A stretch of DNA of 60,656 nt, taken from positions 1 to 60,656 of the IMG/VR virus record IMGVR_UViG_3300044699_000035; one strand, given 5' to 3'. The DNA is from a virus. Taxonomy: Duplodnaviria > Caudoviricetes. The notes below the pieces were generated by a model. That model ran no database searches. It was given only the letters and a program-made list of their open reading frames with translations, and was not told where the DNA came from. Below, piece after piece: positions 18,848-58,029 of the stretch. The translations under genes were made by a program, and so were the position numbers. Position 1 is the stretch's first letter. Each line of letters begins with the position of its first letter.

Positions 18848-19104
18848 TGTCGGCGAATAGTCACCAAATAAAAGGCAGTCACTACAACAAGTACGCCCTG
18901 CAGCCGTGGGATTTGTACGATGTGTGGAACATGAACCCTTTCGCCGCGCAGATCCTGAACTACATCGTGCGGTACCGGGACAAAGATGGCGTGTGGGATC
19001 TCAAGAAGGCGCGGCACTTCCTCGACAAGTGGATCGAAGTGGAAGAAGCGAAGCTGCGGCATGACCCAGCGATACCGACATTGACTGACGAGGTTAAACC
19101 ATGA
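18844..19104 (+). CDS. DUF3310 (SaV / T7 gp1.7-like) protein
   Basis: QIKGSHY..QPWD..NYIVRYRDKDGVWDLKKARHFL. Confidence 0.85.
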   Translation: MMSANSHQIKGSHYNKYALQPWDLYDVWNMNPFAAQILNYIVRYRDKDGVWDLKKARHFLDKWIEVEEAKLRHDPAIPTLTDEVKP

Positions 19105-21095
19105 AAGTCGTATTCGATTCCAGCAGAGAAGTAGTAACCCTCGAAGACACCGCGGTTGTAACTCCGCCTCCGCCGCCTCCGCCTCCGCCGCCTCCGGTGT
19201 CGGCTATGCCGGTGGTCACCATCGAGCCAATGAACTCGACCATGATCGTCGCACTGAACGGTTGGTGCGGCACGAATGGGAACTACGAGCGCTTCCAGAA
19301 ATTCGATCCGTGGAATTCCGCGCCGGTCAAGATGCCGTTCGGTTGCAAGGGTGCCGCGGCGACACGCATGCTCAAGGGCCCCACGTACACCCTACGCATC
19401 TACGAGATGCCCGCGAACGTGGAGGTGCGGACCGCGACCAAAACGCTGCTGACGGCGGTCCAGTCCTCGTCGTTCGACGTCGACCTCACCGGGCTGAAGA
19501 AGGGCTGGTACCGTGCACGCATCGACTGCCCAGTGCCGGAAACTTCACCGTCCTGGTTCATCTGGGTCCGCGGGAGCGCGGCCGATCCGATGCCAACCAT
19601 GATGCCCGTGGTCGCGGGGTCGTACGAGCTACTGCATTCTCCTCAACCGGGGAAGTGGGCGATGGTGCCGGCGGAGTTCAACCCGACGATCAAACCGCTA
19701 CCGCCGCGTGCGCATGTACCCTGGCCGGGAAACGTCACGCCGTCCATGCTCTATCGCGAGTACAAGGTTCCATACAAAGGTGATGACGACATCCATCGTC
19801 CGCGCTATACGGAGGGCGTGCTCAACACGTTCAACAGTCAGAGCTACGCGTACTTCAACCTTATCGCCGAGCTCCCCACTGTGGTACTGCGCGATGGTCC
19901 GCGTGGCGTAGGTACCGTTGGTTTCGCGACGCACATCCAGACCGGGCGCAACCAGCACGACTATTTCCTGCAGCCGTGGCGTTTATGCCGACTCGATGCA
20001 GACGGCACGATCACCACGCTTGTCGGCTGGAAGCATGACGACCAAGGCAACCTCGTACTCGTCGGCGACTGGAGCGGAGTTATCGGTAAGAAGGGCATGT
20101 GGGAAGCGTGGGGTGGATGCTGGGACCCTGACTCACTGGCGCTAGACCCCACCGCTCCGCCGATCGGAGGTGAGCAACCGCATCTAGGTATAGGACCGGT
20201 GTATTACATCGCCGATACCCGCAACAATCGCATCCTCAAACTACAGTTCGGCGCGACAACCCACGCACCGCCGATCGTCACTGAATTCATCACCAACATC
20301 CTCGACCCGTTCGACGTGCAGTGCTCGCCCAACGCAAACGGTGGCGACCTGTTCGTCAGCGAGCGAATGAGCAACCGCATTGCGGTGTACGACAAGAACA
20401 CCGGTGCCTTCAAGCGTGTGCTTGCACAAGGCTTGCCTCTGGCCACCGTTAACATTAACCGCATGATAGTGCGCTCAGGAACGGATGCAGCGATACAAGC
20501 GCAGCCGTGTGTATGTCCTGAAGGGTTGTCGTTGCAGGACGGCAAGCTCCAATTCGGCAGTTGGGCGATGCGCCAGATTTACGAACTCGACGCCATCACC
20601 GGAGCGCGCCTGCGCGTTGTGGGCACGCCGGCCACCGACTCGAACACCCGTTTCTTCAAGATCGCGCAGTCGGATGGCACGACCCTCCCACGCGGCACGA
20701 CGTTCGTTGTTGGTTGGAGCGCAGTCACCAATGGCGCTCCCCAAGCGTTCCTGCCTAGCGGCCAATCCGTGATGGTCCAGAATTTGTTTGCTGGCGACAA
20801 GATCCCATCACAGGGGCGCGGCGGTTATTACGAAGCGCTGGGCTATCCGGCCAGCGTGGGGTGTGGCAATGGGCGGGTACTGTACTCCGGATCTGCGGAG
20901 GGCATCGCGCAACTCACGCTTGCACAACCGACTGATCCAGTCATCGACTACGCGAAGTACCTGCGCGGGCGCTGGGAATATCCGACACGGGGCTTGCACC
21001 TAACCCACGGGTTCCACCACTTCCCGTACTGGGGCGTGCCACCTGCCACCGGTATCTCGGCAGATATCGACTACTACATCGCGGTGAATTACTAG
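19101..21095 (+). CDS. NHL / beta-propeller-like protein with poly-Pro linker, 664 aa
   Basis: Intact ORF; poly-Pro near the N-terminus; YIADTRNNRILKL, PFDV..LFVSERMSNRIAVYD and PEGLSL. Confidence 0.7.
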   Translation: MKVVFDSSREVVTLEDTAVVTPPPPPPPPPPPVSAMPVVTIEPMNSTMIVALNGWCGTNGNYERFQKFDPWNSAPVKMPFGCKGAAATRMLKGPTYTLRIYEMPANVEVRTATKTLLTAVQSSSFDVDLTGLKKGWYRARIDCPVPETSPSWFIWVRGSAADPMPTMMPVVAGSYELLHSPQPGKWAMVPAEFNPTIKPLPPRAHVPWPGNVTPSMLYREYKVPYKGDDDIHRPRYTEGVLNTFNSQSYAYFNLIAELPTVVLRDGPRGVGTVGFATHIQTGRNQHDYFLQPWRLCRLDADGTITTLVGWKHDDQGNLVLVGDWSGVIGKKGMWEAWGGCWDPDSLALDPTAPPIGGEQPHLGIGPVYYIADTRNNRILKLQFGATTHAPPIVTEFITNILDPFDVQCSPNANGGDLFVSERMSNRIAVYDKNTGAFKRVLAQGLPLATVNINRMIVRSGTDAAIQAQPCVCPEGLSLQDGKLQFGSWAMRQIYELDAITGARLRVVGTPATDSNTRFFKIAQSDGTTLPRGTTFVVGWSAVTNGAPQAFLPSGQSVMVQNLFAGDKIPSQGRGGYYEALGYPASVGCGNGRVLYSGSAEGIAQLTLAQPTDPVIDYAKYLRGRWEYPTRGLHLTHGFHHFPYWGVPPATGISADIDYYIAVNY

Positions 21096-21103
21096 GAGCT
21101 ACG

Positions 21104-21331
21104 ATGATCGATACCGCTACCCCCGTACCAGAGGAGATAGATCACAACGCGTTCGAGGCGTGGGCTCGCATGAAGGGGCTAAGTCTCCTCGAAGGCCGGT
21201 GTGCTGCGGAGGGCAGGTATCAATCTGCCAACACGCATTACGCATGGTTAGCATGGCGCGCAAGTGCCTGCACATTTCGCCATCCTGCCGGAGTATCCAG
21301 CGTGTCAACAGAGCCGCCTGCCGAGGAATAG
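21104..21331 (+). CDS. Hypothetical protein
   Basis: RBS AGGAG; AFEAWAR..GRYQSANTHYAWLAWRAS, a common small phage protein motif. Confidence 0.65.
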   Translation: MIDTATPVPEEIDHNAFEAWARMKGLSLLEGRCAAEGRYQSANTHYAWLAWRASACTFRHPAGVSSVSTEPPAEE

Positions 21332-21467
21332 CGTGGACCGTCTTTGGTACTGGATTCAACTGGCAATCTGGCCGCTCATTCGAGACACAGACTGCTACTA
21401 CTGTATCTTCCTTAGAGGTGTAGCAGTCGGTACGGTCGTAACGTGTATAATCACAGGAGCGATACTA

Positions 21468-21817
21468 TGGATACGGGCTTAGATGTAGACAAGATCAACA
21501 AGACCGCGCCGCCGGTCGAAGAACATTCCGACGAAGAGCAGCGGCAGGTGTCGGGGCTGTACGAGGCGATGTGGAAACTGTTCGACGGTGTGGACCATGT
21601 AGTCGTGGCGAAAGCATGCGGGGTATTCATGGTCACGCTGATGCATGTGAGTGAGAAGTGGGGGCACATCATTCCCGGGTTCATGAATCAAATGACCATG
21701 GGTGCTAACTTAGCACTGAACCATCACAAACCAAAAGGAAATGACAATGGCGAAGAAGGCGGCGGTACCGAAGAAGCGCAAGGGGACGATCGAGGTGTGG
21801 AAGTCAAAGAAGGATAG
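21468..21817 (+). CDS. Hypothetical protein
   Basis: RBS AGGAG; MDTGLDVDKINK... Confidence 0.55.
21701..21717. promoter_or_regulatory. Palindromic operator-like site, copy 3 (intragenic)
   Basis: GGTGCTAA-C-TTAGCACT about 25 bp upstream of the DUF1508 gene start. Confidence 0.6.
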
Positions 21818-21968
21818 GAAGTTCTACTTCCACCTGCGTTCGTCCAACGGGCGTATCGTGCTCCCCGCTGGCCAAGGTTACAGCCGGCGCGTGGATCTGA
21901 TCACCACCCTGCAGCATGTGTGCGACATCTTCACCGATCGTCGCTTCATTATTCAGGAGGCAGCGTGA
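21741..21968 (+). CDS. DUF1508 (YegP-like) protein
   Basis: IEVWKSKKDRKFYFHLRSSNGRIV..GQGYSRR. Confidence 0.75.
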   Translation: MTMAKKAAVPKKRKGTIEVWKSKKDRKFYFHLRSSNGRIVLPAGQGYSRRVDLITTLQHVCDIFTDRRFIIQEAA

Positions 21969-22101
21969 CTCCCTCAGAAGCGTATGAAAAGCTATGCAAG
22001 GAAATCAATGCCGCTACTCAAGACAAGCAACCGTATGTAGTGTTGCCTCTGGACGTAGCTAAAGCCCTTGAAGATGTAGTCGGCGGTGACTTGGAGAACA
22101 C

Positions 22102-23163
22102 ATGATCGAAATCGTAGCTGCGATGATCGTCCGCAACGAAGCCCCGGTGCTGCGTCGCTGCTTCGACTCGTTGAGGAAGGCAGGCATCAGCAAGATCATC
22201 GTCAATGACAACGGGTCTACCGACGACACGCCGAAGATCCTCGAGGAGTACGGGGTCATTCAAGTGCCGGGGCCATGGGTTGACTTCGCAACCAACCGTA
22301 ACCTAGTTCTCGGCGTGGCGCGTAGGTGGGGAGACTACGTGCTGTGCGGCATTGACGCTGACGAAGAACTGATCACGCCGGATGGCTGGGGGTGGCCTGC
22401 GCTCAACGCTGATTTGTACTCGATCTACGTACGCAACGGGAACCTGCTATACCCGCGCCATGCGTTGATCAACTCGCTGACGGGTGCGTCGTGGCAGTAC
22501 GTGATCCACGAGATCTTGATGCTGGAAGATCCCAATGCAAACGTTCCAGCGGTACCAGGACCGCACATCCTAGTACACAAAGACGGGCATCGGGCGACCG
22601 ATCCGCACGTACAACAGCGAGATCTCAACGTGCTGCTCAAGGCATGCATGGATTACCCCGAAGAGCCGCGCTACGTGTTCTACACGGCGCAGACGTTCAA
22701 GGATCTGAACTTCCTTGAGAGCGCCGCTCATTACTACCGCAAGCGCATCGACATGGGTGGGTACTACCAAGAGCGCTGGTATTCACAGTACATGCTAGGG
22801 CGCATTGAAGACTGGTGCGACCGCAACCCAATCTCTGAATACCTCAAGGCGTACGACATGAACGTAGGCCGCGTCGAACCCCTGTATCATGCCGCTGACT
22901 GGCTGCGTCGTAACCACCAGCCACGCGCTGCGTATGCCCTGGTGTCGGGGTTCCGTAAGCACATGCTGCCAGGACTGTTCGTCGAGTCCGATGTCTACGA
23001 ATGGCGCTTGCTGGATCTCATCGCATCGTGCGCATGGTGGGCTGACGAGAAAGCCGCCGGGGCTGCAGCTTCACAGGCGCTGTCGATGCGGCAGTTCCCC
23101 GAAGAACACCGGGTACGCATCGAAGCCAACGCAAAGCTATACGAGAATCTCTGGCCGAAGTAG
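22102..23163 (+). CDS. Glycosyltransferase family 2 with TPR repeats
   Basis: MIVRNEAPVLRRCFDS, DNGSTDDT, WVDFATNRN, IDADE (DxD), YVIHE; TPR-like PRYVFYTAQT..AAHYYRKR. Confidence 0.92.
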   Translation: MIEIVAAMIVRNEAPVLRRCFDSLRKAGISKIIVNDNGSTDDTPKILEEYGVIQVPGPWVDFATNRNLVLGVARRWGDYVLCGIDADEELITPDGWGWPALNADLYSIYVRNGNLLYPRHALINSLTGASWQYVIHEILMLEDPNANVPAVPGPHILVHKDGHRATDPHVQQRDLNVLLKACMDYPEEPRYVFYTAQTFKDLNFLESAAHYYRKRIDMGGYYQERWYSQYMLGRIEDWCDRNPISEYLKAYDMNVGRVEPLYHAADWLRRNHQPRAAYALVSGFRKHMLPGLFVESDVYEWRLLDLIASCAWWADEKAAGAAASQALSMRQFPEEHRVRIEANAKLYENLWPK

Positions 23164-23255
23164 TCGCCCCGCAGGCGCGCTCGGGTCCCCCTCCACGGGG
23201 GTTCATGATTGGGTATCCAGGGGGGCGTACCTTAAGCGCGCCAAGCCCCCCACTC

Positions 23256-23916
23256 TCACGCCGACATGAACACGATCCACGTATTCTCAACGTGGAATAG
23301 CGGCCAGCCCTGCTCCTGCTTCTCGTCCAGCACCGACTTGACGTCCACCGTTCCCAGCGTGTGGTAGTCGTGCCAGATAATCAATCCACCCTTACGCACC
23401 ACCTGCAACGACAGCATCGTGTCGGCCAGCACACCCGATCGCGAGTGGTCCCCGTCGATGAACGCAGCGTCACAGATCGGAAGATCCGTAGGGTGCACGT
23501 ACGCGGAGCCCTGCGGGTGCAACAGCAGCTGGAAGCGCGGTCCATCATCACCAACTCCCCCGGCCGATCCGGCACCTCGCCGCGCTGAACTTCCTTCGGC
23601 GTGACGAACCCTTGCGGTACATCGATGCCCACGTAGCGCTCGATCCCTGGAACGTATTCCAAGATCGCCTGTGCGGTACGCCCGACGTTCACTCCCGAAC
23701 TCCAGCACTGCCTTCGGCTTCACCGTGGAGATCAACCCGCACAGCACTTCGAGCTCGCCTGGGTTCATGAACCGCCGCGGCCGGTTGGTCCAGTCGATCA
23801 CCGGCATCGGGATCGCACGCTGCGGCACCCTGGGTGATAAGCGGCGTGAGCGCCTGGGAGACACCAGCTGCGACCTTCCTGCGTTCCACCGGGCGGTGGT
23901 TCATCCTCATCGGCAT
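23256..23916 (-). CDS. Class I SAM-dependent methyltransferase (Methyltransf_24-like), frameshifted
   Basis: KPKAVLEFG-NVGRT, YVGID, DAAFIDGDHS and GGLIIWHDY. Confidence 0.85.
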
Positions 23917-24871
23917 AGCATTTCCTTCAGGGTGTGAACGACGAAGCCCTCGTCGGGGGGTGTGCACGACTCGAATATCAATGGTCGATCTTCCAGTTCG
24001 TTCCATGGGGTGACCGGGATGTCGAACTCTTCGCACGCGGTAGCGCGCGTGTCGATCGCCACCATGCGTACTTTGCATCCTACGGATGCAGCTGGGATCG
24101 CCGCGTGCAGCCGGTACGCTAGAACATGGTCGCACCTGCTGTACAGCCGGAGCAGGGAGTGCGCGTCGTTGATCAGCCTGACGTCGGCAAACCCCTCGCC
24201 GCGCGCCCACAGGTAGTCGTCCCAGGTCGAAGCAATCAGCCGTGTGGGCAGGTGCCGGTTCATCCGGTTGCGGATCTCGACCAGCACCTCCCGGGCACGC
24301 GCACGGTTCCACATCCCCACCAGCATGATCGCGTCGTACTTCCGCTGCAAGTTCCCGACCGGCATCTCCTCCCGCGCCCAATAGCTCGAGCAAGGCAGTT
24401 GCTTGCAGTCGGCGTTGGCCAGCCCATAGACCGCCGTCATCAGGTTGTCGCGGGTGATGCGCGCGTGGATCGCCTTGGCGTATTTCAGGTACTCCACGTT
24501 GCGTGGCTTCTCCGCTATCGCCTGCGCCATGACCGCCACCGACGGCTCCCCCAGGCTGTACGCTGACCCAGCCCACCCGTCGATCACGGCGCACGCCGGC
24601 CGCTTGCAGGGCCATCAGGCGCAGCCAGATCCCCCCTTCCCACCACGCATCGTCAGACAGGGTGAACCGCGGGTTGCCGCATATGATCGCAACGTCGCAG
24701 GTGGCTGCAGCGGCCCAGTGCACGGCGTTGTCCTGCATCATGTCGACCGTGATGAACTCAGCCTCAGCGACCGCCTTGCGCACCAGCGCCTTGATCCCGG
24801 CGGTGATCATGTACCAGCCAGGGTTGGAATCCGGACCCCAGGGTCAACGGGGTAATCAGGGCAACTCGCAA
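23907..24871 (-). CDS. Polysaccharide pyruvyl transferase family protein (frameshifted)
   Basis: N-terminal NPG..MITAG, ITRDNL and LYSRCDHVLAYRLHAAIPAASVG. Confidence 0.75.
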
Positions 24872-25830
24872 TGCTCCTCCACGAAGGTAAGGGCGCGGTT
24901 GATGGCGAGCGGCACGTTGATCGCCTTCTTGTGTGCGTGCCGGTGATCGAAGCAGTTGCAAGGCTCGATCGGGTCGATCCCCAGCGTAGGTGCGAACTTG
25001 GCCCCGTCCTTGATCGTCATCGAACTCTCGTGCCCACCGAACACGGTGATGCTGGGCGTGCCCACCGCCTGCGCCAGGAGCGGCGCGAAGCCTGGGGAGG
25101 AGAACACGAGATCAGCGTAACCAAACAGCGCAGCCATTTCCTCGAACGTGAGCTCACCGTGGTGGAGCTCGACGTCAGCGATGATCGGAACGCCAGAGAT
25201 CCACTCCTTGTCCGGTACTAAGTCAGCAACAGATACCACGAAGAAGTCTTTCCGCAACGAATACAGTATGTCGTAGTACGCCCGCGCGTCGGGGTTCCGG
25301 CCGCGGCACCCTTCCCACTCCGTACGCTCAACGAGAGGCCGGTACACCATGATCGGCTTGGTGGTGAAGAAACGATCGATGCGATGATCGGCGAGCCGCA
25401 GCCAGGGCTCCGGCACCGGCAGTCGGAAGTCCGCAGTCGCCATATCACAGCCGGCGTTGTGCACCATGGCCGCGAAGATCGACCCGTACCGGCGCACGTC
25501 GGCCCCGGTGTACCACACGCGGATCTCCATCGGGGTCCAGGGCAACGCGGTGGCGGTGTAGCGCGCAGCTTCCCGCAAGGCGTTCTTAGCCTGCGTGCGC
25601 AGCGCCGTGGCCTTGGGCACGAGATGCAGGCGCTCGCCTACTAGGTCGTGGTACACCGACGGCCAGGGTGTCTCCAGATACACCGGCTTGCGCTCCATCA
25701 GCTGACGCACGATGGCTCTCTGATGAATATTGTCGCCCAGCCCGTGCATGCCGTGCACCGAGATCGCCTCAGCCTTGGGCAACGGCTTCGCTCCACGGTG
25801 AATCGGCCGGTGCCTCACATCAATAGGCAT
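24856..25830 (-). CDS. GT-B glycosyltransferase, GT9 (heptosyltransferase-like)
   Basis: GMHGLGDNI and LTFEEMAALFGYADLVFSSPGFAPLLAQAVGTPSITVFGG. Confidence 0.82.
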   Translation of the reverse strand: MPIDVRHRPIHRGAKPLPKAEAISVHGMHGLGDNIHQRAIVRQLMERKPVYLETPWPSVYHDLVGERLHLVPKATALRTQAKNALREAARYTATALPWTPMEIRVWYTGADVRRYGSIFAAMVHNAGCDMATADFRLPVPEPWLRLADHRIDRFFTTKPIMVYRPLVERTEWEGCRGRNPDARAYYDILYSLRKDFFVVSVADLVPDKEWISGVPIIADVELHHGELTFEEMAALFGYADLVFSSPGFAPLLAQAVGTPSITVFGGHESSMTIKDGAKFAPTLGIDPIEPCNCFDHRHAHKKAINVPLAINRALTFVEEHCELP

Positions 25831-25834
25831 GACT

Positions 25835-26494
25835 CTAGATCTCCCGTTCGAAACACGTCAGCGCTGTTGACGTAGTGCAGTTGATCACCCGCACGCCCTC
25901 GCTGGCGAGCTCCGGTGCCATGCTGTTCATGGCGTTGATCCAGTATGGGAAGTTGCGCACCGGGTTCAGCGGTGCCGGGTGCTCACCATGCCAATGCGCC
26001 ATACCGTCGGTGTCCTGCATATCGTAGCCGACTAGCAGCACTAACTTGGCCCCGAACAGGTAGGCGAGGTTCAGGAGCACATGGCCACTATTGCCCCCGG
26101 AGAACACGAGATTCGGCGCACGCGAAAGCCCAGGCTCGTCACTATGTCGTACATGATGGAGTCCATAGCGGTGGGCGAACCAGCGATCCTGGGTCCAGCA
26201 CTCCCCGTGGAATCCATGAACGACGTTAGCGTGATGTACCTGCCACCAGGAACAATCACCAGCGTACAAGATATCGGCATCGGGAAGTCGCTCCCAGGAG
26301 TTGTTGGCCACCATCAGCTTCCAGCCAAAGGTCATGCGCTGCATCGACCGAAGCATCTTCGCTTGCTCGATACTGAAGCTGGGGCCGCTGGCCACGCAGA
26401 TGATGCGCGTCCAGTCACGATGAATCGGCGTTGCGGGAATCCCCTTCGGCGGGCCCCCACGACCCTTTGGTCTGCGGCGAAGCAGGACCATTAC
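25835..26494 (-). CDS. MAF/DUF115-like (sialyltransferase-like) glycosyltransferase
   Basis: IICVASGPSF, MVANNSW, ADILYAGD and GGNSGHVLLNLAYLFGAKLVLLVGYDM..HWH. Confidence 0.75.
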   Translation of the reverse strand, partial: VMVLLRRRPKGRGGPPKGIPATPIHRDWTRIICVASGPSFSIEQAKMLRSMQRMTFGWKLMVANNSWERLPDADILYAGDCSWWQVHHANVVHGFHGECWTQDRWFAHRYGLHHVRHSDEPGLSRAPNLVFSGGNSGHVLLNLAYLFGAKLVLLVGYDMQDTDGMAHWHGEHPAPLNPVRNFPYWINAMNSMAPELASEGVRVINCTTSTALTCFEREI

Positions 26495-26781
26495 TTGGTA
26501 CACTGCAGCAGCACGGCTTCCAACCTACGTAGGTACGCCTCGCGCTCGCGCGCATTGATCGAAGCAGCCGCGGCCAACTGCGCGGTGCTCGCTTTGCCTG
26601 TGTCGATCGTAACTAGTGCGGGTGCAGCCGGCAAATCCGCGACGGTGATGCACGGCTTGGCGACAACCTTCTCAACCGTAATGACCTTCGGCGGTTCACT
26701 TACTTGGAGTCGTGGCTGCTCCGGCACCGACTGACACGCCATCACGAAGAAGGGTACGCAGAATATTGTCAGCTTCTTCAC
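26491..26781 (-). CDS. o-spanin (Rz1-like lipoprotein)
   Basis: Signal peptide with lipobox VMA-C; overlaps the 3' end of the i-spanin in another frame. Confidence 0.8.
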   Translation of the reverse strand: MKKLTIFCVPFFVMACQSVPEQPRLQVSEPPKVITVEKVVAKPCITVADLPAAPALVTIDTGKASTAQLAAAASINAREREAYLRRLEAVLLQCTK

Positions 26782-27214
26782 AGTCTTTCTCCGTCAGCGG
26801 TGGTCCGTTCACGATGTCCTGCAGACGCTTGATCTCGGCCCGGTTGCGAGTGTTCGTTGCCTGCTCGCGGATCACCTGGGCCATGGCGGCGCGAGCCTTG
26901 TTCTGTGCGGTGATGGCGTCGGCTTCGAACTGCGAGATCGACGCTGCCTGCTCCTTCACCTGCCCTGCCAGCCGATCGTTCTCAGCTTTAAACGTAACGT
27001 TGATTGCGACGGCTTTCGCAGTATCGGCTTGTGCGTCCTTCACGTCCTGCTGCAACTTGGCCACCTGTGGCTTGTAGACGACTTCCGCCGCGACGTAGCC
27101 GTCCTTCCAGATCGAATGGTGTATGTACCACACCGCACCTACGACCAAGCCCAGGAGCGCTGCGATGATAGCTACCTTGATCCAGATACCCAGTCCCGTG
27201 AACCAGCCTAGCAT
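26696..27214 (-). CDS. i-spanin (Rz-like)
   Basis: N-terminal transmembrane segment followed by a long coiled coil; downstream of the endolysin. Confidence 0.8.
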   Translation of the reverse strand: MLGWFTGLGIWIKVAIIAALLGLVVGAVWYIHHSIWKDGYVAAEVVYKPQVAKLQQDVKDAQADTAKAVAINVTFKAENDRLAGQVKEQAASISQFEADAITAQNKARAAMAQVIREQATNTRNRAEIKRLQDIVNGPPLTEKDCEEADNILRTLLRDGVSVGAGAATTPSK

Positions 27215-27847
27215 GACGTAATCCCCAGCCATCAGTGCGATAACGATACTCAAGAGTATTGAGAATGCGATCAGGGTAGCCGCGATTCTCTTTGAAGTTC
27301 GCCGCGCTGCGCCCACTGTTGAACCTCTCTACATTATCGAACCACCTCGTTACGTCCGCTCCGTTCACCTTGGCTAGCTGTACATCCTTCTGCAACCAGC
27401 CTAACCCTCCGTTGTAGCTAGATAGCACAAACGCCATACGTTCGCAATGGTTGAACGAGGGGGGTACCCGGTCGTAGAGCCACTTGTTGTACTCGACCAG
27501 CGCCCTTATCGCCCAGGTGGGGTTATTCGGTTGATTGTCCTGCAGCGCCTTGTACGTCCCGCTGATCCAGCCCGCGGTCGACGGCATGAACTGAGCAAGG
27601 CCAGCTGCACCACCGGGGAGGTGGCGTCAGCACGCCAGCCTGACTCTTGGTGGATCTGGGCAGCGAATGTAGAAATGGGGGCATCGAGCCCCCATACCAT
27701 GCGTGCATTGCGCACGAGCTCTCGCTTGTACTTACCCGCATCAGGCGGGATTTGCCCCTGCGCAGGGAACGCGACGAACATCCACGATATCAGAGCTACG
27801 ACACACCATAACGCGAGTCGTAGAGCTTGGGTGGTACGGTAGTTCAC
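27208..27847 (-). CDS. Endolysin, lytic transglycosylase (SLT) with N-terminal hydrophobic signal (frameshifted)
   Basis: AAQIHQESGW, GLAQFMPSTA and SYNGGLGW..ENRGYP. Confidence 0.9.
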
Positions 27848-28153
27848 GCAGCAAGGGCGAACGCAATCATGCCGCCGACGATGTACCCCATGCGACGATT
27901 CTTCGCTGCGTCCTGTAGCGTCTTTGTCGCGAGCTCGTCAACGTGTCCTTCGGCCCAGACGTGTGCCCAGAATCCGAGGATCGCCCCAGCAGTCAACAAA
28001 AGAACTTTGTATAGCGTGACGGGTACCTGTTGTGGAGACACTGAGTAGATAACCCAGGTCAGGGCCGATCGTCATGATCCACGCCGGCCACAGTCGGAAC
28101 AGCTTGCCGAACCACCTGAGTACATCATTAAACGACGGAACGTATTTACCCAT
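27844..28153 (-). CDS. Holin, Holin_2-3 family (frameshifted)
   Basis: SPQQVPVTLYKVLLLTAGAILGFW..RRMGYIVGGMIAFALAA. Confidence 0.8.
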
Positions 28154-28437
28154 TAGTCCGATCCTTTCGGCTCCAGCTTCACGACCCGAAGCTCGATCGC
28201 GTGTTGCTCATCCTTGACCATGCGATGCACTTCCGATAGCGACACCCCGAACTTGTGAAACTCGTTCTCAAGCTTCGCTTCCAGCTGCGCCATCCGCGCT
28301 TCGAGATGTTCCGCCTTGTTGTAGTTCTTGATTACGATCCAGGTAACAACGGACACCAGCACCCCTCCGCACAGAAGAAATGCAGAGATGAAAACCTTAA
28401 GCAGGTACAGGGTAGTCTCGAGATCCAAGATCATCAC
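28153..28437 (-). CDS. Membrane protein, transmembrane segment plus coiled coil
   Basis: Intact 94 aa ORF in the lysis operon. Confidence 0.7.
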   Translation of the reverse strand: MMILDLETTLYLLKVFISAFLLCGGVLVSVVTWIVIKNYNKAEHLEARMAQLEAKLENEFHKFGVSLSEVHRMVKDEQHAIELRVVKLEPKGSD

Positions 28438-28782
28438 TCACTGACGAAAGAAAGCTACTACGACTGCTACAGCTGAAACAGCAACGCTGAGGATACTAAA
28501 CAACAGCGCCCGATTGTCCTTACCCCCGCTATCCACCCCATCCCGTCGATCCATGCGTGCAGATAATGCCACGATCATCGCCGTTAACGCATCAAACCGG
28601 GCAGTCGCTTCAGTGCGCAGCATCATGATCTTCGTAGAATCAGACAGCGCGGCACGAAACTCGTTTACAGTCTCGAACCGCTTGTTCGTTTGCTCTTTGA
28701 ATTCGGTAACGGCGAGTTGATCCGTTGCCCGTAAGTCAAGGATGTATTGTCTTAACGACTCAACGTTCCATATAGTAGACAT
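28438..28782 (-). CDS. Membrane protein with C-terminal transmembrane segment
   Basis: Intact 114 aa ORF; NKRFETVNEFRAALSD. Confidence 0.7.
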   Translation of the reverse strand: MSTIWNVESLRQYILDLRATDQLAVTEFKEQTNKRFETVNEFRAALSDSTKIMMLRTEATARFDALTAMIVALSARMDRRDGVDSGGKDNRALLFSILSVAVSAVAVVVAFFRQ

Positions 28783-28860
28783 GATGGGTGGCCCCGGGCA
28801 TCAGCAGGAAGGTATCAGGTGGGGATGACCGCCTTGCACTAGCCGAGCCGGGGCCATTGA

Positions 28861-28983
28861 TCACTTTTTCTTCTTGGCCTTCTTCTTCATCATCGCCATC
28901 TTGTCGTCGCCCTTGGGGTACGCCTTCTTCCCCATCGGGGCCTTGCCCTTGTCGCCCATCGCAAACGGGTTCTTGCCAGCCAT
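28861..28983 (-). CDS. Small Lys-rich protein
   Basis: RBS AAGGAG; MAGKNPFAMGDK...KKKAKKKK. Confidence 0.6.
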   Translation of the reverse strand: MAGKNPFAMGDKGKAPMGKKAYPKGDDKMAMMKKKAKKKK

Positions 28984-28984
28984 G

Positions 28985-39899
<10,915 letters not shown>

Positions 39900-49387: not shown

Positions 49388-50444
49388 TTACGCGACCCAC
49401 ATGATCAGCACGTACCCCGGCGCACCAACACCACCCGCGTTGGTCGATCCCCGACAGCCCGCCTGCGCCGCCACCACCCGAGCCGTACGCCACCGCAGCG
49501 CCACCAGCACTGCCGCCGTTACCACCGACACCACCAGGTACCATAGATCGTGCTCGAGCCGCCGCCACCGCCGCCCTGGCTGCTGACCGCCACACCACCG
49601 GCAGCGCCTGTGTACGCGCCGCTACCAGCCCCGCGCGCCCCCGCACCGATCGTCGTAGCGCCGGCACCACCCGCACCACCACCGAAGTAGCAGTTGCTCT
49701 CCGCTGTGCCGATCGCGCCAGCACCGACCCCACCGATACCGCCAGCCACGCCGCCACCGTTGCCGCCGAACGATGTCGAACCGACACCACCCAAGCCACC
49801 GTTAGCGATCACGTACCCAGCGACCGAACTGAAGCCCGCCTGTCGCACCAGTCGCCGTGCCGCCACCAGCTGGCGCTCCTGCACCGCCGACACCAACGAC
49901 AACTGGAACCTGCGGACAGGGGCGTTACAAAGATCGGGAACGACGCGATGAACTCACCTGCTCCACCACCTCCGCCACCGGCCGCGCCGGCACGCGTTCC
50001 ACCGCCGCCACCTGCACCGATCGCCGTAATCCAGATCGCCGATACGCCAGCAGGAACATTGAACGTGCCGCTCGACAGAAATTCTTGCCCGCGCAATATG
50101 CCGTTACCCGCGGCAGCGGTACCCGTTGCACCGGTTGGCCCTGTCGGTCCAGTAGGACCCGTTGGACCCGTTGGACCCGTTGGACCCGTCGCGCCTGCGC
50201 CAGGACCGGTGGGACCGGTTGGACCCGTTGGACCCGTAGCACCTGCGCCAGGACCGGTGGGGCCCGTTGGTCCGGTTGCACCCGTACCCGCAGGGCCAGT
50301 TGGCCCCGTAGGACCTGTCGGCCCAGTAGCTCCAGTGGCACCGTTACCGACAGCCCCAGTGGGTTGCACGCAGCATTCTTGACACTGCCCGCAGCCACCA
50401 CAGGACGGAGTTGGGCACGACGATCGATGGGTAGTAACCATCAC
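49388..50444 (-). CDS. Collagen-like fibre with Cys-rich N-terminus and Gly-rich C-terminal domain (frameshifted)
   Basis: [16 protein letters not shown]; (GPT/GAT)n; [27 protein letters not shown]. Confidence 0.75.
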
Positions 50445-50448
50445 ATCC

Positions 50449-52269
<1,821 letters not shown>

Positions 52270-52279
52270 TTGGCTGTGC

Positions 52280-52976
52280 TCAGAAGTTGGGGAATGCAGT
52301 AGTCGGAACAGGAATCGTCGCGCCAGTGAAACCGCGTCCACTACCGACGGTAAGACGGAAATCGTCGTAGTGGCCAGGAGCAGGACCAGTACCGAAAGAT
52401 CCTTGCCCCAAACGCAATGGCATCCCTATGTACGTCGTTCCATCGGTGTAATTCGAACCAACTTGCGCTGCGGTCCCGCCACCGAGAGTGCCCCTGTACA
52501 TCCGCGTGGTCCCGCTTACACGAGCGACCGCGATGTACTGCCATGCTGCTGCCGTCATCACTGACCCCGTGATTCGATCCGCGGAACTCACGTAATAGCG
52601 CAGCGATGTTCCGTTCGCGTAGATCGCCGGATACGCACCTTCAGAAGCGGGACGCCCGTCGAAGTAAACCTGTGATCCAGTGTTGTTCGTCGGACGGACC
52701 CATAGCTCGATCACGAAATCATTACTGCCAATGGCGTAGTTTGCATTGCTTGGCGCATTGACATTGTTGTTGCTGGGAACGCTGACGCTCGCAGTCCCAA
52801 ATGCTTTTTCCGACGTGGATAGAACGGAAGCCCCACTAGGACCAAAGGCATTCGCGCCGATAGTTTGCGGAAACGAGTTGCTGCCATTCGCTCCATCAAA
52901 GTGCGTCAGGTGCTTGACGAACGAGATGAAGGGTCCGAACGCCCAATCATCAACAGCGCTGCATGAGGAGCCGCCA

Positions 52977-52977
<1 letters not shown>
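52280..52977 (-). CDS. LamG / ConA-like lectin domain adhesin
   Basis: Start [12 protein letters not shown] (indel follows); [30 protein letters not shown] and GHYDDFRLT. Confidence 0.8.
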
Positions 52978-54251
<1,274 letters not shown>

Positions 54252-56448
54252 TTACGCTCTCCCGTTATTCAACTGCTGGACCACCGGACCTGCCGCCCCA
54301 CTGCGACCATCTGGCATCGGTACGAGCCCGGTGCCTTGCCCCGGAGCCTGCGGAACTTGCGCAACTTGCCCTGGTCCCTGGGGCGGGGGTGGTGCACCTA
54401 GCGCGGGCGGAACCCCAGGGCCTTCACCGCCCGGTGGTAATGCTCCCGGTGGAAGTCCGCCGCCGGCGGCTTCCATCAGTTGCTCTTCAAGCTTCGGATC
54501 GGGAATGATGTCGTCGATCGGCAGATCGGAAGACTTCATCACTTCACGAAGCAACGTCGCGATACCCGACTTCGGGATGATCCCAGTCGGAATAAACGGT
54601 GCCAATACCTGCAACGTCTCCAGTCGTTTGCCGGCCGCAGTCTCACGCGCCAGCACCGACGTCGGCCCACGAGCCTGCACCTGCGCGTCAACCTTGATCG
54701 CAGGATCTGGGTCATACATCATGTTGTAGTTGTAGAACGCCGAGATCAGGGGCTCCAGCACATCCTGCTCGATGTTCACGATCACCTGCTTGATCCCCTT
54801 CGCCGCGTTGCCCATCAGCATCGCGAGCCCGCCTACCGTCTTGCCTGCACCGGTTACCGCGGGATTGCCGTACGCGTACGCGGGAATCCCCGTCGCGTCG
54901 TCGCACTTCTTGATCTCTTCGTTGATCAGGGACTCGAGCTCGCCTGCGTGGAGATCGATGTTGTGGAAGTGGTAGGCCGGCTTGTCGCTGCCTAGAAGAC
55001 TGGGCTCCACCACCTTGATCATCGCCGGAAGAATCTCCTCCGGAGCCTGCTGCCCACCGAGACGAGACTGATCAACTTCAGCGAACGGTCCTGACGCAAG
55101 GCCCATGTTCCGGCGCAGTGCGCGATACGCGCTGTTGATGATCTGCTGGTTCGGTCTCATCAGCATCGGCACCGAGCGCCCCACCATGGAGCCGGGGACC
55201 TTCTCGTACGACGTCACGTAGTACGGGCGCTGCTTCATCGGATCGGGGTTGAGCACCGCGCGCACACAGATCCCGCCGATCACCCACAAGTCCGCTTCGT
55301 ACATCGCCTGCGGATCGTCGACCTTTAGCCCCCATCCCTGCAGCAAGTCGCCACGCACGCCGCCCCAGAAATTCAGCGTGTCGATCGTGTCGCCCGTGGT
55401 GAGCGTCAGCATCGTCTGCCACTCCAGCTGCTCGCGCTGGGTCGTGGTCTGGGTCAACTCCTGGTGGCCGTTGATGTAAAAGTCTAGCGCTTCTTTCAGC
55501 TTCTTGTCGTTGAAGTTCGGCATCCCCTTGCAGTCCACCAACGCCTGCCGGGACATGTGCATGACTTCGACGAGGTAACCCTCCTGCGGGCTCACCGACC
55601 AGGGAGCGAAGTAGTAATCGAACGGAGATACCCGCTCCACGTTCAACGTAGCTTCCGACGTCGCGATCGGCGTGCCGCCGTCCCACTTCAACCGCCGTTG
55701 TTTCTTCACTACCGGTGCCTTCAGCACCGCGTACGGGTACACCATGAGATCGGAGATGAACGACTGCAGCACCGGGATGAACTTGCAGTCGACCAACTGA
55801 TCGTCGATCTTGCGCTGCATCTTGTCCGTGCCCTGCTTCGCTTGGTCCATCAGCGCGCGGTAGGCAATGTCCCCAAGCTCGCCGATCCGCTGCCGGAGCG
55901 CCGCCTCGTCGAGGGGTGCGCCGAACTTCTGAATTTCCTTCTTCACCTGCTCAACCACCATGTCCTTCACCATCTGCGGGACGTTGGGGATTGGGGTCGG
56001 GAGCCAGGGACCAGACGCGATCCCCACTTGCTGTGAGGATGTCGGTCAGCCACGCTTCACCCGCTCGACACTTGGTCGCGGTAACCCCGAAGAAGGTCAG
56101 GATCGTGTTGTTCTGCATCGCCGCGAGCTCGCCCGGGTCGTACTCGTTCCGGCGTTGGCGCAGGCATTGCAACAGCAGGTTGTCGATCACGGTGCGCGAA
56201 TTCATCGCCTGCACGAAGCAGGAGCGCGCGTACGCGCCCAGGGCGCAGATCGTTTGTTCAGACCCGGCTGATGTCGGCGTAGTGCCGCCGGGGTCGAGTG
56301 TGCCCTTATTGGACCCGGCGGGTGTCGCCGTGACCGGCACGTTCATTGGCAGGTTCGATCCGGGGGTAACGCCCCCCTTCTGCGCCGGAGTGCCTTGCGC
56401 ACCTCCGCCTATCACCTGCCCGTTAAATCCGCTGCCGACGAGCGCCAT
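54252..56448 (-). CDS. Portal protein (frameshift near 56020)
   Basis: Follows terminase; TATKCRAGEAWL, ERVSPFDYY, RPYYVTSYEKVPGS and KTVGGLAMLMGNAAKGIKQV. Confidence 0.9.
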
Positions 56449-56497: not shown

Positions 56498-58029
56498 TCA
56501 AAAGGAAGTGCCGTTCGACCCTCCAGAAGCAACAGTAGTGAGTCCAGAGAAGAAGTTAGTATGTTTGACGCCAAGGGCGAGGTACTGCAGCGCGTCGTGC
56601 GGGTGCGAGAACATGTTCTTCTCCGGGGTACGCCCGATACTGCCCGGTGGTGGCGATCTTCCCGTAGCGGTAGCCCGCGATTGAACCCCTCGCGCAGCAC
56701 CTTGCAGTGGGGTGAGAGGATGAACCCCTTCCGGCGCATCAGGAAGCTCGCCACAGCGTCCCTACGCGGTATCCAGTCGTTGGTCCGCGCCGGCCGGCAG
56801 GCGATCCCCGCCGCACCCACCATCATGAACGGCGTGCGCTTGTCGAGCGGCTGCGCCCTACCCCGGCCGGGTCACCGAACCCTTCCAGCTTGCAGCCCCG
56901 GTAGCGCTCGTCTCAGGAGCGGGCGCAGGTACGACTCGATGAACTCGTCGAGCGCGGTGTCGATCCCCGGGAAGAGCTCGTCGACGATGTTGAGCGACCC
57001 AGTGCGCGAAATCTGGCCGAAGACAGCCGCAGGGTTGAGCCCCCAGTCGAAGCCGATGATCACCGGTAGGTACTTGTCGGGGACCAGGGGGGCCTGCGCC
57101 ATGTGCTCCTTGTCGCTCCACTCGCTCGAGTACACCGCGCGCCCCGCGGTGGACTGTCCGTACTCCCCTTCGATGAATACCTTGATCCACTCGTCGGTCT
57201 TGCCGGGGATCTGCACCAGCCAATACCGGAAGCCCTCTTCCAGATTCTCGACGTTCTCCGCGTCGGGGTTCCCCACCCACTGCATCTCCCCCGGCGCGCC
57301 AGGAGAGCCATCGGGGTGCACCGTCACCGGGATCTTGATCAACGCCGCGGGTTGCCGGAACAGCTTGTAACCTTCGAGGGCTTCACGTTCAAAGAGCGTG
57401 TACAGCCAGTGGTCGTCGGGCACCGGGTTGTAGTCCATCACCACACCGGACCAGTTGAACCCGCCGCGATCCTTCGACGGGTAGCGCCCGCGCCGCTGAA
57501 TCGCAAACTCCAGCACTTCCTTCTGCAGTTCCGACGCCTCGTTCAGCCACACGCCCGTGAGTTCCAACGATCGCATCTTCCCCAGGTCCTGCGTGCGGTC
57601 GAGGGCCAGGAACAGAATTTCGAGATCCAGGTATGTGCCGTCGGGAAGCAACGTCTTCATCTTCGCGATCGGCGGGTAGTTCTCGTTGATGTGCGCGATC
57701 GACGACGGCATCCAGTGCATCATCGTTTTGATCGTGGTGGTCTTGAGCTCGTTGTACGTGTTGCGTATCGCGAGCCACCGCGACGTGCGCACGCCCTTGT
57801 ACACGGTCTGCCGGAACGACCGCAACACGATCTCCATCGCGGCCATGCTGGACTTGCCTGAGCCCACTGGGCCCATCACCGCACGTACCAGGGAGTCGTC
57901 GTTGTGAAACTTGAGCGCGGTTGTCGTCGGGTTGTAAACGACGATGTTCTCGTCGTCGCCCACCTGCGCTATGTACTGCGCATCGGCAACGCTATTCACT
58001 GAAGACTTCCGCAGGAAGTCCGAAGGCAC
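56498..58029 (-). CDS. terL: Terminase large subunit (frameshifted C-terminus)
   Basis: MGPVGSGKSS, SLELTGVWLNEA, MDYNP, IIGFDWGLNPA and SHPHDALQY. Confidence 0.95.

Follow-up and report, generated by a model that had tools for sequence, protein, structure and literature searches.

The collagen-like protein BclA is glycosylated in Bacillus. Among viruses, mycobacteriophages are the only ones for which we know of experimental proof that phage enzymes glycosylate the virion; in them the modification changes how antibodies recognise the particle. The work of Freeman et al. 2023 is said to show that the mycobacteriophages Che8, Corndog and Myrna use glycosyltransferases of their own to decorate virion proteins with host sugar donors, in some cases together with an O-methyltransferase. 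In C. difficile, SgtA is a 358-residue enzyme with a GT-A domain (residues 1-260) followed by a TPR domain (262-358). Its gene directly precedes bclA3, and the enzyme transfers beta-O-linked N-acetylglucosamine (GlcNAc) in vitro onto Thr of the Gly-Pro-Thr (GPT) repeats of BclA3 (PMC7157674). Here we describe a putative glycosylation island in the IMG/VR record IMGVR_UViG_3300044699_000035, a linear viral contig of 60,656 bases with an estimated completeness of 81%; this whole stretch of DNA is referred to as the window. The island holds genes for a GT2-TPR glycosyltransferase, a methyltransferase, a polysaccharide pyruvyl transferase-like protein, a GT9-like glycosyltransferase and a Maf-like enzyme (Table 1), and the same genome encodes three fibre proteins with collagen-like Gly-X-Thr (GXT) segments. 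An earlier note on this DNA, made from its letters alone, had all five enzymes building a single pyruvylated, methylated O-glycan on these fibres. We favour, with a probability of roughly 0.5, a reading in which two glycosylation systems lie side by side in the island of this soil podovirus, namely the GT2-TPR enzyme, acting on the fibres, and a separate cassette formed by the other genes.

GT2-TPR genes co-occur with Gly-X-Thr collagen genes

We retrieved 160 loci (80 metagenome and 80 viral loci, forming 115 clusters at 70% identity) with an alignment of the GT2-TPR family and compared them with 98 viral loci retrieved first by the GT9-like protein itself and afterwards by its alignment (1.45 Mb, not de-duplicated). 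A run of at least four GXT triplets was present in 48 of the 160 GT2-TPR loci and in 38 of the 115 clusters. The median distance between the run and the GT2-TPR gene was 1157 nucleotides, and the two were at most 1 kb apart in 19 of the 48 loci and at most 3 kb apart in 38. Only 2 of the 98 control loci contained such a run (Fisher odds ratio 20.6, p 2.5e-9), a contrast whose effect size is approximate because the control set is unmatched for taxon and locus length. The same test for at least four triplets with other residues at the Y position found, in the GT2-TPR loci, none with Ser or Pro, 1 with Ala, 6 with Val and 6 with Gln, and Thr accounted for 69% of Y positions in the collagen-like runs near GT2-TPR genes. 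Collagen-like runs also occurred in 20 of 97 control loci, with Asp, Pro, Gln, Ala, Lys and Arg as their commonest Y residues and Thr outside these top six. In the reverse direction, among 80 loci chosen by a (GXT)6 pattern, 8 held a GT2-TPR homologue and none held a homologue of the Maf-like, GT9-like, pyruvyl transferase or Methyltransf_24 proteins. A specific genomic association of the GT2-TPR family with GXT collagen genes is, at the level of sequence, well supported. Co-occurrence with GXT genes had been proposed in the earlier note as a check on the island as a whole; for GT2-TPR alone (48 of 160 loci against 2 of 98) its outcome was positive.

The domains of the GT2-TPR protein of the window are supported by sequence matches. 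Its N-terminal part matches PF00535 (42.2 bits against a cut-off of 23.3, 1e-10, residues 8-89), the whole protein matches phrog_13126, and the best single-sequence matches in the PDB are GmaR (4e-9) and the SunS family. With a profile built from 39 homologues, positions 4-215 match GmaR (1e-22) and SunS (2e-17), and positions 175-290 match consensus TPR proteins (3e-15) as well as the TPR domain of OGT. The DxD motif, a metal and nucleotide-sugar motif in GT-A enzymes, is invariant among the 39 homologues and reads D85-A86-D87 in the window. A Pfam scan of the window protein alone gave no TPR domain; PF13431, a Pfam TPR domain, is precomputed in 18 of 53 homologues. The family is rare among deposited phages, with a homologue in only 6 of 50,697 records. 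A search of viral contigs with the window protein alone, or with its homologue P0256, found nothing, and a profile search of genome contigs with the GT2-TPR alignment returned only generic N-terminal GT2 matches, mostly from Acidimicrobiia metagenome-assembled genomes (MAGs), which say nothing about SgtA or about partners in bacteria.

Contigs of giant-virus MAGs also belong to the family. In one provirus-like locus (L240, 8055-13274), beside terminase genes, the GT2-TPR gene is flanked by a duplicated gene pair, each pair encoding an IPTL-CTERM protein and a collagen-like protein that has a signal peptide and GAT/GPT repeats. Since the family takes in both giant-virus MAGs and this locus, the partner of GT2-TPR appears to be Thr-type collagen generally, not phage fibres alone, and, judged from sequence, this partner can apparently be a secreted protein of bacterial type. 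Uninterrupted Gly-X-Thr arrays of up to 68 triplets were seen no more than about 2-3 kb from GT2-TPR homologues, giant-virus MAG contigs included (L269 12991-15312; L319/L059; L227 14201-14893; L196 12658-12936).

The nearest relative of the window has a GT2-TPR domain among the fibre genes themselves. Seven IMG/VR contigs encode a portal protein 73-80% identical to that of the window, and wherever their sequence goes on, collagen-like genes follow the portal gene. Only one of them spans the island (G001; 55,304 bases, 94% complete, portal 76% identical). It has no convergent GT2-TPR gene; its collagen fibre genes instead flank a 905-residue open reading frame (ORF) of the same strand (L030 10652-13369, +), which encodes a Methyltransf_23 domain (60-202), a GT2 domain (234-362), TPR-like repeats and a C-terminal domain of ~300 residues. 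We considered whether this last domain might be GT9-like but left it unassigned: hhalign gave a probability of only 21%, no match was found in the PDB, and in NCBIfam there was only a 40-residue match to heptosyltransferase I (E 6e-4). A stand-alone copy of the domain, 36% identical, directly precedes GT2-TPR in another locus (L260).

Together, the three fibres of the window contain 84 collagen triplets, 65 of them with Thr at Y, and nine further GPT triplets out of frame. The earlier note was right that there are three Thr-rich collagen fibres. Its description of them as almost entirely Gly-X-Thr was overstated, because each protein also has parts that are not collagen. The G001 orthologue of the 49809-50444 fibre is 359 residues long and has a Gly_rich_2 domain, as do the orthologues of the window fibres other than the 630-residue one; the G001 orthologue of that protein is 53% identical and carries PF12708, PF01391 and PF13229. 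An ORF of 239 residues at 52280-52999, which matches baseplate and virion-protein PHROGs, may be the C-terminal part of the third fibre. From the co-occurrence, the G001 fusion and the parallel with SgtA, we consider that GT2-TPR probably acts on the GXT fibres.

The other genes belong to a cassette found across phages

The remaining genes of the island have a different distribution. Among the 98 GT9-like loci, 78 hold a Maf-like gene, 79 a Methyltransf_24 gene and a further 10 a Methyltransf_23 gene; a pyruvyl transferase gene is present in 3, where, as in the window, it lies directly behind the GT9-like gene. The cassette has structural genes as neighbours, with portal in 44 loci, major head protein in 34 (2-4 genes upstream), terminase in 23 and small head-tail proteins downstream. 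In phage D3 it corresponds to orf7, orf12 and orf13, between the major head and tail genes, and ORF010-012 of PAJU2 occupy the same place. With GXT runs in 2 of 98 loci and head and portal genes beside it, the cassette is a widespread module of the structural region of phages that is not tied to GXT collagen.

Depositors have labelled two Maf-like homologues 'structural protein', PAJU2 ORF010 (AP009624.1 7780-8349) and one from the Klebsiella jumbo phage Eowyn (LR881104.1 2351-2866); if the label rests on virion proteomics, the Maf-like enzyme may itself be packaged. In 8 loci an ORF of ~85 residues stands between the major head and Maf-like genes (among them L027 5788-6057, L355 9300-9557 and L356 7322-7576). 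Its C-terminal tail is rich in Ser, Ala, Pro and Thr with a Lys/Arg end, and it is a candidate acceptor or decoration protein of the cassette. The C-termini of the major head proteins beside the cassette showed no clear Ser/Thr-rich acceptor tail.

This distribution bears on the proposal that all five enzymes work in one pathway and equip the collagen fibres with one O-glycan that is both pyruvylated and methylated. The five genes are adjacent in the window, and a 6.4-kb metagenome contig (L160) repeats the architecture of the window without pyruvyl transferase, with an SLT endolysin, spanins, Maf-like, GT9-like and Methyltransf_23 genes and a convergent GT2-TPR gene (42% identical). Moreover, 11 close GT2-TPR homologues share the size of their longest contig with GT9-like or Maf-like homologues, which suggests that they sit on the same contigs, and G001 fuses methyltransferase, GT2-TPR and a further domain within its fibre cluster. 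Yet the cassette occurs in 98 loci without a flanking GT2-TPR gene, only 1 of the 160 GT2-TPR loci holds the cassette, and in G001 the cassette lies ~27 kb from the glycosyltransferase fusion of the fibre cluster. We therefore regard one pathway as unlikely. Of the single fibre glycan put forward in the earlier note, the link between GT2-TPR and the fibres is well supported, and the part assigned to the four other genes is not. The note had itself named missing co-occurrence of the island with GXT fibres as telling against its proposal, and for these four genes co-occurrence was indeed missing (GXT runs in 2 of 98 loci and in 1 of 26 whole records). As 96 of the 98 cassette loci are without GXT, a single five-enzyme pathway to a fibre glycan is at best possible, and in this clade.

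The GT9-like and Maf-like proteins resemble protein and lipopolysaccharide glycosyltransferases in fold

The AlphaFold2 (AF2) model of the GT9-like protein has a pLDDT of 93.8, and its top Foldseek match is the GT9 structure 3tov (1.7e-9), followed by TibC (4rap/4rb4), WaaF (1psw) and WaaC; the top 10, which include 3tov, 4rap/4rb4 and 1psw, have a probability of 1.00 and TMq of 0.53-0.62. We found 618 homologues, some labelled heptosyltransferase by JGI and one fused to PF13578, and within an N-terminal G-x-G-D motif G30, G32 and D33 are invariant. Near the C-terminus, residues 291-300 comprise a nearly invariant C-x-C (C291, C293) and then a consensus H-x-H-x-C, a candidate metal site that could be reminiscent of TibC. 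TibC has an iron-binding Cys cluster. For the Maf-like protein the AF2 model has a pLDDT of 93.3 and moderate Foldseek matches to the HPPK 8sd5 (MptE), CstII (1ro8) and Maf (5mu5), with E values of 1.4-1.7e-4 and TMq of 0.48-0.60. Among the matches listed, 44 of 120 homologues carry a precomputed PF01973. A conserved N-terminal A-S-G-P-S motif (A38, S39, G40, P41, S42) may resemble the CMP-binding motif of CstII.

These folds, together with the pyruvyl transferase, raise the main rival explanation for the cassette, that it modifies the host envelope, either the lipopolysaccharide (LPS) core or another surface glycan, and so blocks superinfection or keeps progeny from sticking to debris, with GT2-TPR the only enzyme, if any, that acts on phage proteins. 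GT9 enzymes are classically heptosyltransferases of the LPS core, and WaaC and WaaF are among the fold matches. Pyruvyl transferases of the CsaB type, to which the window protein has weak matches (TIGR03609), act on cell-wall polymers. The cassette occupies sites typical of the morons of temperate phages, as in D3 and in the 4 of 26 whole cassette records that are labelled provirus. The named bacterial hosts of phages with homologues are, among the matches listed, all diderm; three records are labelled Tetraselmis viridis virus. However, the window genes come last in the late operon of an apparently virulent podovirus, after the lysis genes, which would leave little time to remodel LPS that has already been exported. 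No membrane or flippase component was recognised among the five proteins, although no search aimed at these was made. TibC and Maf, which glycosylate proteins in the cytoplasm, are among the closest relatives by fold, and the 'structural protein' label of PAJU2 ORF010, which is depositor annotation only, also counts against the envelope. We judge envelope modification to be rather improbable.

A model of two glycosylation systems

In the mechanism that we propose for two co-located systems, GT2-TPR would be a cytoplasmic protein O-glycosylase of the SgtA/GmaR type. Its TPR domain would bind the Gly-X-Thr stalks of the three virion fibres while these are unfolded or assembling, and its GT-A domain would add the first sugar to Thr side chains. 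By analogy with SgtA, this sugar may be an N-acetylhexosamine (HexNAc) or a hexose from a host UDP-sugar. The cassette of Maf-like, GT9-like and methyltransferase genes, here with a pyruvyl transferase gene inserted after the GT9-like gene, would be a separate, late-expressed system that most likely decorates virion proteins. In the clade in which the cassette lies back to back with GT2-TPR, it may lengthen the fibre glycan by one or more further sugars and cap it, the methyltransferase adding an O-methyl group and the pyruvyl transferase a pyruvate ketal.

Besides its place among structural genes, two observations support the model for the cassette: the fold relatives of its GT9-like and Maf-like proteins include TibC and Maf, which glycosylate proteins directly, and the cassette closes the late operon in the window. 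We see even odds that the target of the four-gene cassette is a virion protein or the glycan of one; that it acts on the same fibre glycan as GT2-TPR is conceivable and clearly less probable. From their folds, and from the diderm hosts among the matches listed, we infer ADP-heptose of the LPS core and a CMP-ulosonic acid as donors for the GT9-like and Maf-like enzymes.

Several points weigh against the reading of the island as two glycosylation systems. The data show the families and folds of the genes, their synteny, the association of the GT2-TPR family with GXT collagen and the place of the cassette in structural modules; what the enzymes act on, which donors they use, in which order they work and whether the virion bears a glycan are inferred. 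About 70% of the GT2-TPR loci have no GXT run in the flank covered, and ~27 kb separate the GT2-TPR gene of the window, which is on the strand of the replication genes, from the fibre genes. Besides the scarcity of GXT runs in the 98 cassette loci, a (GXT)4 pattern in the DNA of the whole records behind the first 26 loci was present in 1 of 26, and in none of the 4 with a completeness of 90% or more, and GT2-TPR was absent from the flanks of cassette loci outside this clade (0 of 98). Morons that a prophage expresses typically sit among structural genes as well. The GT9-like protein has no sequence match in Pfam, NCBIfam or the PDB, the Maf-like protein misses the PF01973 cut-off (18.7 bits against 34.6), and the fold of the latter is equally near a kinase (the MptE HPPK) and sialyltransferases. 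Finally, the pyruvyl transferase could be truly broken in this phage, because the break near 24588 lies outside the coverage of the independent contigs described below.

We also put forward, tentatively, a wider version of the model. SgtA-like GT2-TPR enzymes would be the dedicated partners of Thr-collagen in phages, giant-virus MAGs and bacteria, giving mucin-like bottle-brush fibres, and the cassette of D3, PAJU2, PMG1 and hundreds of uncultured phages would glycosylate virion proteins with LPS-core donors. If this is true, no sugar-synthesis genes would be needed, because every diderm host makes these donors for its LPS core. In line with what the earlier note had reported, no family for sugar-nucleotide synthesis was found in the ORFs scanned, a scan that was not exhaustive. 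The phage of the window would then have combined both toolkits and added a pyruvyl transferase, a suggestion that we hold with the same reserve.

Frame breaks in the island are best read as assembly errors

An addition to the earlier note is that two of the five genes are frame-broken in the window, the methyltransferase gene twice and the pyruvyl transferase gene once. The window methyltransferase matches PF13578 at its C-terminus only (34 bits against a cut-off of 26.3, 6e-8), and its intact G001 orthologue matches the full profile (46.3 bits, 8.7e-12). The C-terminal piece of the pyruvyl transferase has a marginal match to PF04230 (29.4 bits against a cut-off of 25.3, 1e-6) and a weak one to CsaB (TIGR03609); the intact G001 protein, of 316 residues, is likewise marginal (25.9 against 25.3, profile positions 20-279). 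No homologue of the pyruvyl transferase was found in the 50,697 deposited phage records. With GT2-TPR in only 6 of these genomes, the combination seen in the window is unusual among known phages.

The breaks might suggest that the island is decaying or inactive cargo. Comparison with the intact ORFs of G001, however, revealed shifts of reading frame inside at least 12 genes of the window, including those for the helicase, a primase-like protein, the pyruvyl transferase, the endolysin, a 2628-residue protein, several tail proteins, the portal and the terminase; examples of the sites are 13447/13449, 17535/17585, 24588, 27611-27617, 31402-31819, 40-45 kb, 55978-56000 and 56625-56912. This number of breaks points to indel errors of assembly and makes ORF-based annotation of the record unreliable. 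We checked the frame breaks over 22000-27900 with Logan contigs from four soil or rhizosphere runs (X1-X4). Contigs from X1, X2 and X4 have one base fewer at 23693-23697, and those from X1 and X2 have an additional G behind 23538. These differences coincide exactly with both methyltransferase breaks and bring motif I into frame, so that independent contigs from three runs remove both breaks; they did not reach the pyruvyl transferase break near 24588 or the endolysin break. Because at least 12 genes are broken, and because independent contigs remove both methyltransferase breaks, the frame breaks are best read as assembly errors of this record. With the G001 orthologues also intact, decay of the island is very improbable.

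Still less credible is that the enzymes glycosylate or hypermodify the phage's own DNA. Some phages do glycosylate DNA bases, and glycosylated 5-hydroxycytosine is the subject of a 2026 paper in NAR (Nucleic Acids Research). But no base hydroxymethylase or similar family was found in the scanned ORFs, the fold relatives of the island enzymes are protein and LPS glycosyltransferases, and DNA modification would leave the association of GT2-TPR with GXT collagen unexplained.

Genome layout and candidate host

Replication genes occupy the plus strand between ~0.7 and 23 kb and encode pieces of a DNA polymerase, an exonuclease, a helicase and a primase-like protein. On the minus strand, from ~58 down to 23 kb, follow the genes for terminase and portal, those for the three collagen-like fibres, the gene for the major head protein, that for a very large protein and the lysis genes. 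Endolysin and i/o-spanin genes (26491-27316) lead into the four minus-strand genes of the island, which close the late operon, and the GT2-TPR gene converges on them, a layout that the earlier note had described and that the ORF map bears out. In G001 the corresponding order is endolysin, spanins, pyruvyl transferase, Maf-like, GT9-like and methyltransferase. All five island genes lie about where the earlier note had placed them, and the families that it named hold by Pfam, PHROG or AF2 with Foldseek; for the GT9-like and Maf-like proteins they do so only by fold, without a Pfam pass. Coordinates are collected in Table 1.

Table 1. Island enzymes, adjacent lysis genes and collagen-like fibres of the window.
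Feature	Coordinates	Strand	Description
GT2-TPR, SgtA/GmaR-like protein glycosyltransferase	22102..23163	+	353 residues; N-terminal GT2 (GT-A) domain with DxD, C-terminal TPR-like helical domain
S-adenosylmethionine (SAM)-dependent methyltransferase (Methyltransf_24)	23256..23864	-	PF13578; two compensating frame breaks near 23694 and 23538 place motif I in another frame
Polysaccharide pyruvyl transferase-like	23907..24810	-	PF04230; one frame break near 24588 splits ~74 N-terminal residues from the 226-residue C-terminal part
GT-B glycosyltransferase with GT9 (heptosyltransferase/TibC)-like fold	24856..25830	-	324 residues; phrog_6804 2.4e-35; AF2 and Foldseek
DUF115/MptE-like enzyme with Maf/CstII-like fold	25835..26503	-	222 residues; phrog_4603 9.4e-39; AF2 and Foldseek
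o-spanin	26491-26781	-	Lipobox FFVMAC; directly upstream of the island; overlaps the i-spanin; ORF, G001 spanin orthologues 47-51% identical and syntenic
i-spanin	26696-27316	-	ORF, overlapped by the o-spanin
SLT-type endolysin	27219..27931	-	Frame-broken near 27611-27617; 332-residue G001 ORF aligns in two frames; L160 orthologue has PF01464 (1.8e-14)
Collagen-like fibre	49809..50444	-	21 triplets, 17 with Thr at Y; runs into a Gly-rich domain after a frame break
630-residue fibre or spike	50449..52341	-	N-terminal domain, 20 triplets (12 with Thr at Y), pectate-lyase-like beta-helix
Third collagen-like fibre	52280..54046	-	53024-54046: 43 triplets, 36 with Thr at Y; nine further GPT triplets in another frame

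By portal protein, the closest deposited phages are Rhizobium phage RHph_TM3_14A (32% identity), HMO-2011-type phages and CRP roseophages, and megablast of the island against the 50,697 phage records gave zero matches. Contigs 95-99+% identical to parts of 22000-27900 occur in the soil or rhizosphere runs of four separate studies (X1-X4), and GT9-like homologues are present in Mesorhizobium and Bradyrhizobium genomes. The phage looks like an apparently virulent podovirus of soil, and these data hint at a soil Rhizobiales host.

Two further proteins flank the region. Just upstream of the lysis genes, 28985-35100 (-) holds pieces of the very large protein, which is intact in G001 at 2628 residues and has a weak match to a virion-RNA-polymerase PHROG (phrog_2206, 6e-10). 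Just upstream of the end of the GT2-TPR operon, 19101-21095 (+) encodes a 664-residue protein with 11 consecutive Pro residues near its N-terminus and NHL-repeat-like sequence; it has no Pfam or PHROG match and no G001 counterpart, and an Atlas feature search placed it at 0.87 to NHL clusters, which serves as a lead only. A scan of 20900-28900 for terminators and promoters gave no excess of sites over shuffled sequence, and the convergent gap had none.

Significance and comparison with known systems

Routine O-glycosylation of Thr-collagen fibres by an SgtA-like enzyme in phages and giant viruses, if it occurs, would bear on fibre stability and host recognition, on immune recognition of therapeutic phages and on the annotation of hundreds of 'hypothetical' genes. 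The pairing of GT2-TPR with GXT amounts to a two-gene rule simple enough to be tried on peptides in vitro, in the way already used for SgtA, and the presence of the cassette in the well-studied Pseudomonas phages D3, PAJU2 and PMG1 makes its function directly testable. A literature search of limited scope, covering papers without their supplements, found none that deals with the D3-type cassette or with glycosylated collagen-like fibres of phages.

The island would be a variant of known protein-glycosylation systems. The closest described counterparts of the GT9-like protein are the autotransporter heptosyltransferases TibC and Aah and the LPS enzymes WaaC and WaaF, its top structural matches (E 1.7e-9 to 1e-5, TMq 0.44-0.62); it differs from them in having no Pfam or NCBIfam GT9 match and an identity of 12-14%, and use of ADP-heptose is suggested by analogy only. 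Maf, CstII (GT42) and the archaeal kinase MptE (DUF115 fold) all match the fold of the Maf-like protein, whereas the window protein has 222 residues, is without the flanking domains of Maf and falls below the PF01973 cut-off, and its fold would fit transferase or kinase chemistry. The mycobacteriophage systems differ in host, being from phages of Actinobacteria and not of likely Alphaproteobacteria or other diderms as here, and in enzyme families; their acceptors are the C-termini of capsid and tail-tube proteins, and those proposed here are collagen-like fibres.

For the GT2 domain, the best sequence relatives of solved structure are GmaR, the O-GlcNAc transferase of Listeria flagellin, and the SunS S-glycosyltransferases, which are, like the window enzyme, GT-A enzymes working on protein or peptide acceptors. 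Their acceptors are flagellin and lantipeptide-like peptides, and the alignment with them is confined to the N-terminal ~215 positions, at low identity. Compared with SgtA, the window enzyme is phage-encoded, its presumed substrates are virion fibres and its gene is not adjacent to the fibre genes. The two are nonetheless of almost the same length (353 and 358 residues), each with an N-terminal GT-A and a C-terminal TPR domain, and the genetic partner of GT2-TPR is, like BclA3, a collagen-like protein with Gly-Pro-Thr repeats (PMC7157674).

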